Counted from the stretch's first letter, positions 4,714 through 57,434 are shown. The stretch is DNA of 64,000 bases from Gaiellaceae bacterium (GCA_045805985.1 JBJMKA010000015.1:31843-95842); one strand, 5' to 3'. Program-made: numbers and translations. The notes: generated by a model not told the origin, from the letters alone.

Positions 4714-5178
4714 ATGAAGCCGACGCTCTTGCAGTACTACGCACCCGGCTGGGGCGTGGGCGAGGTGTGGCTCGACGACGACGGACGCGTCTTCTACAGC
4801 GAGCTCCCCCGTCCGAAACGGCCCCGTCCGGTGTCAGACACGGGTGATGTCCTTGCGGGACGGTTGGCCGCGTTCTTCGCCGGCGCGCCCGACGACTTCG
4901 CCGACGTGCCGCTGGGGATCGACGATGGCTTCTACGGCGACTGCGCCCGGGTCTTGCGAGGCGTGCGGCGCGGGGAGGTCGTCACCTACGGCGAGCTGGC
5001 GGCCCTCGCCGGCTATCCCGGCGCCGCGCGCGCGGCGGGGACGTTCTGCGCCCGTTGCGAGCTCGCGCCGTTCCTGCCCGTGCACCGCGTGATCGCGGCC
5101 AACGGGATCGGGAGCTGGGGGACGCTCGGCGTCGAGTACAAACGACGGCTGCTGGAGCTCGACCATGTCGTTATCTGA
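4714..5178 (+). CDS. Ogt/MGMT-fold protein lacking the acceptor cysteine (alkyltransferase-like)
   Basis: Tail of ORF 4027..5178 from ATG 4714 (MKPTLLQYY). MGMT DNA-binding domain (VTYGELAALAGYPGAARAAG ... LPVHRVIAANG), with PVHRV where Ogt has PCHRV. Confidence 0.8.
   Translation: MKPTLLQYYAPGWGVGEVWLDDDGRVFYSELPRPKRPRPVSDTGDVLAGRLAAFFAGAPDDFADVPLGIDDGFYGDCARVLRGVRRGEVVTYGELAALAGYPGAARAAGTFCARCELAPFLPVHRVIAANGIGSWGTLGVEYKRRLLELDHVVI
4830..4842. repeat. Copy of the GTGTCAGACAC palindrome inside the Ogt-like gene
   Basis: gGTGTCAGACACg, read in frame as V-S-D-T (PRPVSDTGDV). Confidence 0.7.
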
Positions 5179-6070
5179 CGAACTCCGCGACGAGCTGGCG
5201 CAGATCGCGCCTGCTCGCCGCTGCTGTCGCCACGCCGAGCTCTCGGCGCTCTTCCACGCGTCCGGTGCCTGGCACCTGCGCGGCGGGCACGTCGCCGTGC
5301 ACCTCGACCTCGCCGGCTCTGCGGCGGCGCGGCGCGCGTTCGCGCTCTTGCGCGACCTCGGCGTCCGCTCCGAGATCCGCACCTACAGGCGCCGGGCGTT
5401 CGAGCAGGCGACCAGGTACCAGCTGCACGTCGAGGTCGACGACCGCGCGCTCAGTGTGCTGCGCGAGGCAGGCGTCCTCTCGCCGACGGGAGCGCCCCTC
5501 GAGCATCCTCCGAAGCGCGTCGTCGGCCGCTCCTGCTGCCGGGGCGCGTACCTGCGAGGCGCGCTGCTGGGTGCCGGCTCGCTGTCCGGTCCGCGCGACC
5601 CGCACCTCGAGGTGCGGGCGAGCGGCCTCGACGGCGCGCGCTTCATCGCCGAGGTCGCGGCACGGGAGGGCGTCGAGCTCTCGGTGGCGGAGCGTCGCGC
5701 GCACGCGGTCGCATACGCCAAGGGCCACGAGCCGATCGCGCACGTGCTTGCGCTCGCCGGCGCGGGTGACACCGTGCTGAGGCTCGAAGAGCACGCGGTG
5801 GTCGCCGCGCTTCGCGCCGATGCGAACCGACTTGCGAACGCGGATGAGGCGAATCTCGTGCGCGCCGCGCGCGCCGCCCACCGGCAGCTCGAGGCGATCC
5901 GGTCCCTCGACCTCGACGCGTTGCCCCCGCAGCTGGCCGAGATCGCGGAGCTCCGTCTGCGCCACCCGTCCGCATCGCTCCGAGAGCTCGCGGCGAAGGC
6001 CCGGCCACCTCTCTCCAAAGCCTCTGCACACCGTCGCTTGCAGGCCGTCGTGAAGCTTGTTGAAAACTAA
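5165..6070 (+). CDS. whiA: Sporulation/cell-division transcription factor WhiA
   Basis: Full-length ORF. Degenerate LAGLIDADG-type N-domain and C-terminal HTH (SLRELAAKARPPLSKASAHRRLQ). Start overlaps the preceding stop by 14 nt. Confidence 0.93.
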   Translation: MSLSDELRDELAQIAPARRCCRHAELSALFHASGAWHLRGGHVAVHLDLAGSAAARRAFALLRDLGVRSEIRTYRRRAFEQATRYQLHVEVDDRALSVLREAGVLSPTGAPLEHPPKRVVGRSCCRGAYLRGALLGAGSLSGPRDPHLEVRASGLDGARFIAEVAAREGVELSVAERRAHAVAYAKGHEPIAHVLALAGAGDTVLRLEEHAVVAALRADANRLANADEANLVRAARAAHRQLEAIRSLDLDALPPQLAEIAELRLRHPSASLRELAAKARPPLSKASAHRRLQAVVKLVEN

Positions 6071-24191: not shown

Positions 24192-24307
24192 CGGTACTGA
24201 GCGGATCCTCGATCAGAGGGATCATCGGCATGTTCGCCATTCTACCCTGCATTCCCGCCTAATCCGCCGGGGGTATCGTCGCCCATGTCGAACCACGGGG
24301 TGCGAAA

Positions 24308-24529
24308 GTGCAGTGGTGGGCGATGCGCCCTGCGCAGAGCCTGAAGCCGGCGAGCTACGTCTGCCCGTTCTGCGACGGGATGCTGCACGCGACGAGCGAG
24401 CATGCGCTGGTTGCGCCCGAGGGCGACGTGTCGAAGCGGCGGCACGCGCACCTGGACTGTGTCGTCGCGGCGCGCAAGCGCGGCGAGCTTCCGACCGAGG
24501 ACGAGTTCGAGAAGCGGAAGCAGCGCTGA
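24308..24529 (+). CDS. Small conserved Cys/His (zinc-binding-like) protein
   Basis: 73-aa ORF. YVCPFCDG ... RRHAHLDCV. Good codon bias. Start is GTG 24308 or ATG 24320. Confidence 0.6.
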   Translation: MQWWAMRPAQSLKPASYVCPFCDGMLHATSEHALVAPEGDVSKRRHAHLDCVVAARKRGELPTEDEFEKRKQR

Positions 24530-24551: not shown

Positions 24552-24599
24552 ACGAAACGTCACTGTTTCGGGCCTGTGTCTGACACCGGCCATGGCCGG
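24552..24599. repeat. Cluster of palindromes between the Zn-protein gene and tRNA-Arg
   Basis: Hairpin CGAAAC-gtcact-GTTTCG (24552-24569), GTGTCTGACAC (24576-24586), and CCGGCCATGGCCGG (24586-24599). Confidence 0.8.
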
Positions 24600-24714
24600 G
24601 CTGGACAGGGACGTTGGAGATATGCGTCCGGCATGCGACCTCTCGCTCCGCGTTTGGGATCAGACGAGCGCTAGTCGACCTTGTGAAGCGCGGTTGGATT
24701 ACGACTGCGAAAGG

Positions 24715-24787
<73 letters not shown>

Positions 24788-28548: not shown

Positions 28549-28574
28549 CGGTCCCGCGCCCGCTGCGGCGCTGC

Positions 28575-28597
28575 AAAAAACCGTCTCGCTGCGAGAC
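28575..28597 (-). terminator. Canonical intrinsic terminator oriented leftward (no annotated leftward gene feeds it)
   Basis: The minus strand reads GTCTCG-cag-CGAGAC-GG-TTTTTT. This is the only A6/T6 run I noticed in my manual scan of the window. Confidence 0.5.
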
Positions 28598-28608
28598 TGT
28601 GCCCTGGC

Positions 28609-29601
28609 ATGGACCTGGACATCGTCTTTCTCGGCACGTCGGCGAGTGCGCCCACTGCGCGGCGGGCGCCGATGGCGCTGCTCGTACGTCGGGGCGGCGA
28701 CCGCCTGCTCTTCGACTGCGCGGAGGGCACGCAGCGGCAGTTGATGCGCTCGGCGATCGGGTTGCCCGATCTCGAAGAGATCTTTCTCACGCACTTCCAC
28801 GCCGACCACTACCTCGGCCTGCCCGGGATGCTGAAGACGTTCTCCCTGCGTCAGCGCGAGCTCCCGCTCACGGTGTACGGCCCAGCCGGGCTGCGCGATC
28901 TCTTCAAGAGCCTGGGACGGATCATCGGCAAGCTCAGCTACCCGATCGAGCTCGAGGAGCTGCGGCCGGGGGAGGCCTTGGAGCGCGACGGCTACCGGAT
29001 CCTCGCCTTTCCGGTGCACCACGGCGTGTCTGCGGTCGGCTACGTGGTCGAAGAGGACGAGCGGCCGGGCGAGTTCGACGCCACCGCGGCGGACGCGCTC
29101 GGCATCCCGTTCGGGCCCGAGCGCGGCGCGCTGCAGCGCGGGGAGTCGGTGACCTTCGAGGACGGTCGCGTGCTCACGCCGGATGCGGTGCTCGGGCCCG
29201 CGCGTCGCGGCCGGCGCATCGTGATTCCCGGCGACACAGCGCCGGTCGAGACGGTGCGCGTGCTTGCGGAGGGCGCCGATGTGCTGGTCCACGAGGCGAC
29301 GTTCCTCGAGGACGAACGCGATCGCGCGGCCGACACGCTGCACTCGACGGCGCGCCAGGCAGCCGAGGTGGCGCGTGACGCAGACGTCCGCCTGCTCGCG
29401 CTCACGCATGTCTCACCGCGCTACTTCGGCGAAGAGCTCGTGCGCGAGGCGCGCGACGTATTTCCCGCGACCGTGGTGCCCAAGGACTTCGACGTGATCG
29501 AAGTGCCATTCGTGGAGCGGGGATCGCCCGAGTTGATCAGGCGCGGCGCGCGGCCCGAAAAGGTGTCTGACACCGTTCCGCCGGCGGACGTCGCTCTGTA
29601 G
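28609..29601 (+). CDS. rnz: Ribonuclease Z
   Basis: Metallo-beta-lactamase motif HFHADHYLG. Typical N-terminus MDLDIVFLGTSASAPT. C-terminal tail KVSDTVPPADVAL is encoded by a palindrome copy. Confidence 0.9.
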   Translation: MDLDIVFLGTSASAPTARRAPMALLVRRGGDRLLFDCAEGTQRQLMRSAIGLPDLEEIFLTHFHADHYLGLPGMLKTFSLRQRELPLTVYGPAGLRDLFKSLGRIIGKLSYPIELEELRPGEALERDGYRILAFPVHHGVSAVGYVVEEDERPGEFDATAADALGIPFGPERGALQRGESVTFEDGRVLTPDAVLGPARRGRRIVIPGDTAPVETVRVLAEGADVLVHEATFLEDERDRAADTLHSTARQAAEVARDADVRLLALTHVSPRYFGEELVREARDVFPATVVPKDFDVIEVPFVERGSPELIRRGARPEKVSDTVPPADVAL

Positions 29602-29638
29602 CTCGCAGAGGTGTCAGACACCTTTGGTATCAGACACG
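29562..29638. repeat. Three GGTGTCWGACACC-family palindromes at the rnz/aminopeptidase convergent ends
   Basis: 29562-29574 GGTGTCTGACACC, 29610-29622 GGTGTCAGACACC (15-mer with flanks), 29626-29638 GGTATCAGACACG. Confidence 0.9.
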
Positions 29639-30834
29639 AGCTGCCACGCTCCCCCGCGCAACACCGCGACCTCTTCGCCGTCGCGCGTCAGTCCGGTGAC
29701 GGTCACGTCGTCGCTGCCGATCATGAAGTCGACGTGGATCTCGCTCTGGTTGATGCGGTCGTGGTCGGCGTCGCCGACATGCGTTGCGTAGGCGTTACCG
29801 AGCGCAAGATGGCTGGCGGCGTTCTCGTCGAGCAGGGTGTTGAAGAACACCGTGCCGGTCTTGCCGATGCGGCCTTCGCGGTCGACGAGCGCCAGCTCGC
29901 CCAGCCGCTTCGCACCGTCGTCCCTCTCCGTGCGCGTTCGCAGTGCGTCCGCGTTTTTGCCCTGGATGTCGACGACACGGCCGCTCTCGAAGCGAACCTG
30001 GAGGTTGTGAACGACAGAGCCCGCGACGTCGAGCGGCTTGGTGGCGGTCACGACGCCGTCGGCGCGCAGCGGGTCGGGCGTTGTCGTCACCTCCTCGGTC
30101 GGCAGGTTGGGGGCGTGGATCACGCCGTCCACCGTCTGCATGCCGGGCGTCTCCGACCCGAAGCGTGAGGTGGGGAGGAGGCCCACGGTGAGGTCGGTTC
30201 CCGGCCCTTGGAAGCGGATGGCGTCGAAGTGCCGTTCGTTGAGCAGGTTGCCGGCGTCGTGCAGCTGCCGGAGACGCGTGTGCCATGCCGCCGCAGCGTC
30301 GGGCTCGTCGAGTCGCAACACGTAGATGAGTTGCTCCCAGAGCTTCGCCATCGCCGTGTCCTCGTCGAGGCCCGGGTGCACGAGGTGCGCCCATTCCGGC
30401 ACGGCCCAGGGCACGACCGTCCAGTTCGTCGTCCGCGCGTTGATGACGCCGAAGCTCTCCGCATGCCCCGGCAGAGCATCGCGGCCGGCGAGTCCGGGAT
30501 CGATGCCGTCAAGGAGCCCCGGAGGCACCTGCGGCGTGATCGAGATGCGGGCGCCGTGGCCCTCGCCCAGCTCGATGATTCGGCGGCCGTACCAGGACGG
30601 GACGAACGCGAGGGTGTCCGCAGGCGCTCGCTCGAGCCGGATCCGCTTCACGAAGGGGTCGAAGTACCACGGGTCGACGAACTTTGCTCCGCGCTCATAC
30701 GCCTCGGCGGCCACGACCCTCACGAGCGGCGCGGCCCGTGGCTCGGCGACGATCCAGACGATCTGGCCGGGCTGGACGTTCGCGCCGACCTCGACGATCA
30801 ATTTGGCGTAGCGGCTCAGAGTCTCGGCGTCCAC
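29614..30834 (-). CDS. M29 family aminopeptidase (AmpS/PepS-like)
   Basis: Full-length ORF with family-wide similarity (YAKLIVEVGANVQPGQ ..., LLDENAASHLALGNAY). Confidence 0.9.
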   Translation of the reverse strand: MDAETLSRYAKLIVEVGANVQPGQIVWIVAEPRAAPLVRVVAAEAYERGAKFVDPWYFDPFVKRIRLERAPADTLAFVPSWYGRRIIELGEGHGARISITPQVPPGLLDGIDPGLAGRDALPGHAESFGVINARTTNWTVVPWAVPEWAHLVHPGLDEDTAMAKLWEQLIYVLRLDEPDAAAAWHTRLRQLHDAGNLLNERHFDAIRFQGPGTDLTVGLLPTSRFGSETPGMQTVDGVIHAPNLPTEEVTTTPDPLRADGVVTATKPLDVAGSVVHNLQVRFESGRVVDIQGKNADALRTRTERDDGAKRLGELALVDREGRIGKTGTVFFNTLLDENAASHLALGNAYATHVGDADHDRINQSEIHVDFMIGSDDVTVTGLTRDGEEVAVLRGGAWQLVSDTKGV

Positions 30835-57271: not shown

Positions 57272-57289
57272 CCGGGGGCGCGCCCGCAA

Positions 57290-57406
57290 GGTGTCAGACA
57301 CCACTACCACTCGGGACGTTCGCGTGGGGCGCTCGAAGAGGTGTCTGACACCTGTTCGCTCGCGTGACGCGACCGGCCGACGCGAAACGCCGTGGTGTCA
57401 GACACC
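57290..57406. repeat. Three perfect GGTGTCWGACACC palindromes spaced 50 and 54 bp apart
   Basis: 57290-57302 GGTGTCAGACACC. 57340-57352 GGTGTCTGACACC (15-mer AGGTGTCTGACACCT). 57394-57406 GGTGTCAGACACC (15-mer TGGTGTCAGACACCA). Confidence 0.95.
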
Positions 57407-57434
57407 ACCGGCGCCACTCACCTACCATCCCACC

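Follow-up and report, generated by a model that had tools for sequence, protein, structure and literature searches.

The palindrome GGTGTCWGACACC, found in three perfect copies between the GNAT and M16 peptidase genes of a Gaiellaceae genome, is probably the core of a family of dispersed short extragenic palindromes that behave like REP/BIME/REPIN elements. The working unit would be a pair of neighbouring copies in opposite orientation, with T and A as their central bases, which could form a single long hairpin on one strand; the outer stem of this hairpin would consist of the two 13-mers. The elements pile up just past stop codons, chiefly between convergent genes. Fast gain, loss and amplification have left orthologous spacers of close relatives with 0, 2, 3, 4 or 5 copies. 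In kind, the Gaiellaceae family is ordinary. What is unusual is its short perfect core, the doublet logic, the recurrence of the core elsewhere and the fact that no tag or mobiliser was found. This REP-like family is previously undescribed. In the full-text literature searched, the motif and its variants were met only in primers and in an unrelated GntR-type operator, and no description was found in the literature on RAYT/REPIN in Bordetella and Achromobacter or on REP elements in Thermoleophilia. This agrees with an earlier note on the same DNA, which had recognised the motif from no described system; the interpretation given there is, as a whole, partly supported.

The stretch of DNA analysed here, 64,000 nucleotides long and referred to as the window, belongs to a Gaiellaceae MAG, and identical contigs were present in several sequencing runs. 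Its G+C content is 68.6%. The genes are core housekeeping genes: uvrC, an MGMT-like gene, whiA, gap, argS, glpX, pyrB, carB, nusA-infB-rbfA-truB-ribF, rpsO-pnp, GNAT, M16 peptidase and dapB. No mobile-element gene was detected among the 49 ORFs of the window by a Pfam scan, and no transposase was among them. A search of the window against Rfam gave two tRNAs and nothing else, and no other repeat family of note was seen within the 64 kb.

Eight copies are present in the window: five perfect ones, two with one mismatch and a degenerate one with two mismatches (Table 1). Not one perfect copy appeared in 100 dinucleotide-preserving shuffles, and nine matches with two mismatches or fewer were found against 1.2 expected, the ninth being the symmetric variant at 5264; chance or base composition as the source of the copies is ruled out by these shuffles and mismatch counts. 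The 11-mer GTGTCWGACAC occurs seven times in the window, TGTCNGACA was not found elsewhere in it, and the commonest palindrome of the 6+N+6 type is GGTGTC-N-GACACC. The unit comprises a 13-nt core, which reaches 15-17 nt, or about 25 nt if imperfect flanks are counted. The earlier note had correctly given the eight-member family, the three perfect copies of the triplet with their spacings of 50 and 54 bp, the extension of two copies beyond the 13-mer (P2 and P3) and the rarity of the motif, which by chance is expected less than once in 64 kb. Two of its details need small corrections. The copy placed at 24576 starts one base earlier, 24576 being the start of its 11-mer core, and the other positions stand; the GNAT-M16 spacer, which does hold the triplet, is bounded by the GNAT stop (57271) and the M16 start (57435) and is 163 nt long, not 164. 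The flank GCTCG-M-AGA...T, described there as shared, is indeed common to 57331 and 29601. When the copies were aligned together with their flanks (MAFFT and anchored alignments), a few shared bases of this kind were confirmed, but the flanks were unconserved beyond them and no longer conserved element was found around the copies.

Table 1. Copies of the palindrome and associated features, numbered from the first nucleotide of the window.
Feature	Coordinates	Strand	Description
P1	57290..57302		Perfect copy GGTGTCAGACACC, centre A, 19 nt 3' of the GNAT stop codon; inside a 36-nt stretch that relative L129 lacks
P2	57340..57352		Perfect copy GGTGTCTGACACC, centre T; 15-mer palindrome 57339-57353
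P3	57394..57406		Perfect copy GGTGTCAGACACC, centre A; 17-mer palindrome 57392-57408
Inverted doublet P1:P2	57290..57352	+	Predicted long hairpin with a 13-bp outer stem; mutually exclusive with P2:P3
P2..P3 doublet block	57339..57419		81 nt; missing from the orthologous GNAT-M16 spacer of L129
Perfect copy, centre T	29562..29574		In the 3'-terminal 13 codons of the RNase Z-like ORF (28549..29601)
Perfect copy, centre A	29610..29622		Between convergent genes, 48 bp past the 29562 copy; contains the stop codon of the M29 peptidase gene (- strand, 29614-29616)
Degenerate copy GGTATCAGACACG	29626..29638		16 bp past the 29610 copy; spacing of 16-17 bp is common in the lineage
One-mismatch copy TGTGTCTGACACC	24575..24587		46 nt 3' of the stop of ORF 24263..24529; precedes a convergent tRNA-Arg (24713-24787, - strand)
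One-mismatch copy GGTGTCAGACACG	4830..4842		Inside the MGMT-like ORF (4714..5178), read as P-V-S-D-T-G
Symmetric variant palindrome GGTGCCTGGCACC	5264..5276		Inside whiA
TACCAT, -10-like box	57423..57428	+	6 nt 5' of the M16 start codon; context, outside the repeat

Six of the eight copies in the window lie in spacers or at gene ends. The triplet P1-P3 is placed 3' of the GNAT stop codon and 5' of M16, and the copies at 29562, 29610 and 29626 are located between the convergent genes of the RNase Z-like protein and the M29 peptidase. Copies also alter the 3' ends of genes, as one stop codon and one C-terminal tail fall inside them. The tail of the RNase Z-like ORF, K-V-S-D-T-V-P-P-A-D-V-A-L, reads through the 29562 copy, and its stop codon falls in the loop of the 29562/29610 doublet. 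The 29562 and 4830 copies are both read in the V-S-D-T frame. The symmetric variant GGTGCCTGGCACC within whiA is of the form amplified in sister lineages; here it probably matches coding sequence by chance. Directly 3' of the GNAT stop codon, at 57274-57285, there is another, G+C-rich palindrome, GGGGGCGCGCCC, within the same 36-nt stretch that contains P1 and is missing from L129.

The positions of copies relative to genes were then compared outside the window. A species scan, in which one genome per species was searched for two copies 25-55 nt apart, gave at least 120 stretches; genes in the high-GC loci among the matches listed were called by third-position G+C. Among these matches, 82 clusters could be classified: 43 are in convergent, 34 in tandem and 5 in divergent spacers. 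A further eight clusters among the matches listed are intragenic. In the Gaiellaceae relatives inspected, the cluster starts 6-19 nt past the stop codon, and in a Chromatiales locus it lies 3-9 nt past the stop codon. Such gene-end placement is typical of REP elements and terminators and does not suit operators. An operator would be recognised by a promoter position and by conservation among orthologues; only the 5 of the 82 clusters mentioned above are in divergent spacers, and the triplet is missing from the closest relatives.

From this location, and by analogy with REP elements and with 3' structures of mycobacterial transcripts (PMC3993855), the doublets probably act as RNA hairpins at 3' ends. 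Such hairpins would keep 3'-to-5' exonucleases from advancing and would mark where mRNAs end. As terminators, the doublets may be bidirectional and weak at best, because the copies in the window are without U-tracts. The 29562/29610 doublet is followed by UUU or UUUU only. A canonical terminator would comprise a U-tract in addition to the hairpin, and a consensus scan found no terminator-like site at either cluster of the window; a promoter consensus scan of the same clusters also found none. No Rfam match was obtained in 18 motif-rich loci, and nothing meaningful was obtained in the triplet spacer at E-values up to 10. At 57290-57406, the hairpins might separate the pnp-GNAT transcript from a leaderless M16 promoter. 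In 54 of 57 distinct upstream regions of M16 orthologues, a TAnnnT box (TACGCT, TACCAT or TACGAT) ends 6-7 nt short of the start codon, and a conserved box so close to the start would imply a conserved promoter and a leaderless mRNA.

A related reading, which we consider rather unlikely, is that the copies are a selected, sequence-specific 3'-end signal comparable to the TRIT elements of Mycobacterium: a cellular factor, for example a double-stranded-RNA- or hairpin-binding protein or a termination factor, would bind the hairpin and end or stabilise transcripts, and this function, rather than selfish spread, would maintain the family. The tight placement of the clusters next to stop codons and the preference for convergent pairs are consistent with it, as are the near-invariant core with its varying flanks and the persistence of a cluster at the end of pnp (or pnp-GNAT) in many relatives despite changing copy number. 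In AT-richer lineages, moreover, A-runs and T-runs border the core, an arrangement known from bidirectional terminators. There is also a precedent, since TRIT is conserved in Mycobacterium in 147 copies, is bidirectional and lies near stop codons, and a dsRNA-binding factor was proposed by its authors (PMC3152330). However, arrays of 4-20 copies exceed the need of such a signal, the triplet is missing from the closest relatives and the site in L129 is empty, and the copies in the window have no U-tract and match no Rfam family. The mycobacterial RNA polymerase needs a U-tract for termination in vitro (PMC3993855), which makes a terminator role doubtful for TRIT and for the Gaiellaceae doublets alike.

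The relation between neighbouring copies argues for the inverted doublet as the functional unit. In all loci among the matches listed, the central W alternates at spacings of 45-56 bp: the combinations TA and AT were found 98 times, as against 25 times for TT and AA. Among the 47 neighbour pairs of the Gaiellales set, the central base alternates in 36, and at short gaps it does so in 14 of 15 (p = 0.001). Covariation was examined in 20 informative pairs, that is, neighbour pairs in which each copy has exactly one non-central deviation. Exact inter-copy complementarity was observed in 5 of these 20 pairs, with about 0.6 expected, and three of the five (L038, L049 and L066) break the copy's own palindrome. 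Such compensatory changes between copies mean that the functional unit is the doublet. Inter-copy pairing, or an origin by inverted duplication, explains both the alternation and the covariation. A two-fold symmetric site in double-stranded DNA accounts for neither; in such a site an alternating central base has no meaning.

The predicted folds are in line with this architecture. The stretch containing P1 and P2 (57285-57357, 73 nt) folds at -39.4 kcal/mol (z = -5.3). The stretch containing P2 and P3 (57335-57411, 77 nt) gave -38.1 (+ strand) and -43.3 kcal/mol (- strand), and that of the 29562/29610 doublet (29555-29645, 91 nt) gave -38.4 and -40.7 kcal/mol, respectively. The z values of the doublet folds range from -3.2 to -5.5, and lone copies reach just -5.4 to -7.1 kcal/mol. 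In the triplet, P1 and P3 would compete for P2 as their partner, and only one of the two hairpins can form at a time. The earlier view that an RNA hairpin role is weak, because the stem would be only 5-6 bp, holds for single copies alone; it fails for the doublets, as the copies pair mutually with stems of at least 13 bp and energies of -38 to -43 kcal/mol. The spacing had been taken as helical phasing of about five turns. In the Gaiellales set, however, the spacing has maxima at 16-17 bp and about 48 bp and otherwise scatters widely, including values of 35-40 and 44-54 bp. The 50 and 54 bp spacings of the triplet are thus due to the doublet architecture, not to helical phasing.

A doublet of more regular form is found in Alcaligenaceae, where GGTGTCTGACACCC, 36 variable nucleotides and GGGTGTCAGACACC follow one another, so that the two copies start 51 bp apart. 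Of 52 distinct elements among the matches listed, 40 have the T copy first and the A copy second. In this group (for example L073, L031, L076 and L121), the interiors of 36-38 nt vary except for a loose inner inverted repeat, GAGAC...GTCTC, and the units are often in tandem arrays of up to 10 or more copies.

The earlier note had favoured a site in double-stranded DNA for a dimeric protein, such as a nucleoid-associated or global regulator or a partition or condensin-loading factor. The perfect 6+1+6 palindromic core would suit such a protein, and so would the copies of the Alcaligenaceae doublet, which are fixed at 51 bp though the interior varies. One version of this reading concerns WhiA, as each copy is made of two inverted GACAC sequences and whiA itself is present in the window (5165..6070). 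GACAC is the WhiA motif; it mimics the GACA of the -35 element read by sigma region 4, with which it has these four bases in common (PMC10243135, PMC3781837). One GACAC half of P3 lies at about -34 to -30 from the M16 start codon, which sets it near the -35 position of the putative conserved leaderless promoter. Against these points, divergent, promoter-type spacers are few among the classifiable clusters listed, the central base alternates, and the inter-copy compensation breaks each copy's own symmetry. The Gaiellales spacings of 16-17, 35-40 and 44-54 bp are out of helical phase, and the sites are not conserved between close relatives. The same element is present in Proteobacteria, which are not known to encode WhiA. 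With gene-end clusters, an alternating W and a triplet missing from the closest relatives, the dimeric site is unsupported and seems very unlikely.

Turnover was examined in 80 orthologous loci (L127-L206) obtained by an M16 protein scan of metagenomes, with identities of 72-93%. The six closest by M16 identity (L127-L132, 89-93%) have no copy in 3-7 kb. L129 has the same GNAT gene upstream and a spacer of 63 nt with no copies. In an affine-gap alignment with L129, the window has 36 additional nucleotides right after the stop codon, which contain P1, and 81 additional nucleotides, which contain P2 and P3; the L129 spacer is orthologous to the interval that separates P1 from P2. The 81-nt P2..P3 block, missing from L129, thus looks like an inserted unit. 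In this sole empty-site comparison, the divergence of the intergenic DNA is too great for a target-site signature to be read. The GNAT-M16 site thus has no copies in L129 and three in the window, and in L133 it has five. The region 3' of pnp has 2, 4 or 5 copies in different relatives, with different arrangements, and in L146 two copies 17 bp apart are placed immediately 5' of M16. These differences indicate that the elements are gained, lost and amplified on a short evolutionary scale. Such variation in copy number is the turnover seen in REP/REPIN elements, and transposition itself may at most be suggested by it.

Clusters of a symmetric variant, GGTGCCWGGCACC, are present at the same kind of site, upstream of M16, in L135, L140, L169 and L175. 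Here the paired positions 5 and 9 are altered, T to C and A to G, which shows that the core can shift via paired, symmetric substitutions in sister lineages. The copies are not confined to this region, as the same element recurs in related Gaiellaceae and Thermoleophilia genomes; the triplet site varies and has 0 copies in the closest relatives. The gene content from pnp to M16 also differs among L127-L146, where a GNAT gene, a membrane-protein-like ORF, an opposite-strand gene or nothing is found. Palindrome clusters tend to adjoin these variable pnp-M16 junctions, and may mark or promote rearrangement.

That the doublets are MITEs, with ends of 13-15 bp as the terminal inverted repeats of a classical DDE insertion sequence, is hardly credible. 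Like MITEs, the doublets measure some 60-80 bp, their ends are inverted and their interiors vary, and the 81-nt block is seemingly inserted relative to L129. However, visual inspection of doublets showed no direct repeats at their flanks, no recurrent transposase lies beside the copies (all-against-all ORF clustering over 120 loci gave just common families and spurious high-GC ORFs as associated genes), and single copies and packing with gaps of 3-4 nt are common, unlike a fixed two-ended element.

For the REP-like family favoured here, spread might proceed via a single-strand hairpin intermediate. Candidate agents are a HUH transposase of the RAYT type and template switching at the palindromes, which could in addition account for the perfection of the arms. 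Nearly all copies are perfect, however, and besides recent spread this could be due to selection for a factor that binds the sequence specifically. A phmmer search with approximate IS200 TnpA and E. coli RayT queries among the six-frame ORFs of 1.36 Mb of loci plus the window gave no Y1/RAYT homologue; this is a weak test, as a single-copy RAYT gene would probably lie outside this search space. The RAYT/IS200-like gene that the earlier note had proposed to look for was thus not seen in these loci. Of the alternatives listed in that note, the recognition sequence of a REP-type transposase comes closest to the data, although no such transposase was found.

The best-understood REP-like repeats are those of Proteobacteria, which are explained by a dedicated transposase, RAYT. 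REP/BIME/REPIN doublets are mobilised by RAYT in E. coli, Pseudomonas and Stenotrophomonas (PMC3733652, PMC3116915, PMC3337134). The Gaiellaceae element resembles them in being a short extragenic palindrome of many copies, mostly in convergent and tandem spacers with occasional intragenic copies. The inverted dimers and clusters of alternating orientation, which could form a single large hairpin, match the published architecture (PMC3733652), and copy number differs between related genomes. However, its core is just 13 bp and a perfect palindrome, whereas a REP unit is usually about 20-40 nt, and the copies have no unpaired GTAG or CGTC tag of the two described superfamilies. An identical core recurs in many phyla, and the host is actinobacterial; a survey of REP elements from 2013 makes no mention of Actinobacteria (PMC3733652). 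No conserved tetranucleotide tag was found in the flanks of 84 distinct oriented copies, which have weakly A-rich 5' and T-rich 3' sides. Because no GTAG/CGTC tag and no RAYT were found, the element is not filed as a member of REP/REPIN.

It fits the loosely defined "untagged" stem-loop repeats, which include the Bor repeats of Bordetella (PMC3733652, PMC1590033). Compared by description only, both are REP-like palindromes near coding regions with no conserved terminal tag and no known transposase, but Bor repeats are 26-30 bp long and are described as resembling E. coli REP. The closest actinobacterial analogue in placement is TRIT, a conserved, bidirectional, stop-codon-associated palindrome of about 150 copies; this likeness is one of location only, as TRIT is reported to be restricted to Mycobacterium and forms one long conserved hairpin, not a 13-mer doublet. 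Inverted pairs of DNA uptake sequences (DUS/USS) double as terminators in Neisseria and Haemophilus and are maintained by the bias of the uptake machinery in competent bacteria. They are mentioned in PMC3993855. Like the Gaiellaceae copies, they are a short fixed sequence in inverted pairs 3' of genes and form hairpins. The motif is not the same, however, and there is no sign of competence in the Gaiellaceae case.

The Gaiellaceae copies thus represent a clear REP-like family, with neither a tag nor a known mobiliser, from an actinobacterial lineage that is deep-branching and uncultured. As the inter-copy doublet is plainly visible, the family lends itself well to the question of how palindromes of this type originate and are maintained where RAYT is lacking. 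In Gaiellaceae genomes, the copies mark operon ends and variable junctions.

The distribution of the core is wide. The chance expectation for the species scan is, by a rough estimate, about 0.02 matches over the whole collection. Two groups dominate among the matches listed: Alcaligenaceae, and MAGs of Gaiellaceae, Gaiellales and Thermoleophilia. The Alcaligenaceae carriers are Achromobacter and non-classical Bordetella, including isolates with complete or near-complete assemblies. The remaining matches listed belong to at least 15 other lineages of several phyla; Acidimicrobiia, Chromatiales, Sphingomonadales, Acidobacteriota, Planctomycetota, Omnitrophota, Spirochaetota and Firmicutes are among the carriers. 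In many lineages, the 13-mer is the apex of a longer lineage-specific palindrome, such as gaaaatt-core-aattttc, gaacgttt-core-aaacgttc or aaaaaa-core-tttttt. In some arrays, the 13-mer is invariant and the inter-copy spacers of 7-11 nt differ. The motif pair was searched for in the viral contigs of IMG/VR and none was found; as two control palindromes gave 0 and 2 matches, this collection is of no use as a control for the recurrence across phyla.

A broader proposal, put forward tentatively and held to be improbable, is that GGTGTCWGACACC is the invariant core of a pan-bacterial superfamily of hairpin repeats, kept or spread by one trans-acting factor. This factor could be a horizontally moving transposase or nuclease specific to hairpins, or a conserved host reader of an RNA or single-stranded DNA hairpin. 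The proposal is based on the finding of the same core, with lineage-specific complementary flanks, at gene ends in many phyla. Independent invention of the same 12 paired bases in at least 15 lineages seems unlikely. With 4,096 possible arms, perhaps a few thousand independent palindromic families in bacteria and at least 15 lineages among the matches listed, a rough argument suggests recurrence beyond coincidence. If non-random, the recurrence of the core across phyla would suggest that a factor which reads such hairpins has gone unrecognised. The question is testable, as the carriers include the culturable Achromobacter and Bordetella petrii.

Two further kinds of array were observed. Arrays with a period of 20-21 bp (L034 4817-4892, L042 1487-1604, L055 6304-6356 and L029 6645-6698) have an invariant 13-mer and differing spacers of 7-8 nt, which would not result from simple tandem duplication. 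In Treponema MAGs (L116 2074-3280 and L067 2237-4536), long arrays consist of 42-58-bp units that contain the 13-mer, all in direct orientation; many copies are degenerate, and none of the neighbour pairs has inter-copy compensation. The Treponema arrays may be coding tandem repeats unrelated to the hairpin doublets.
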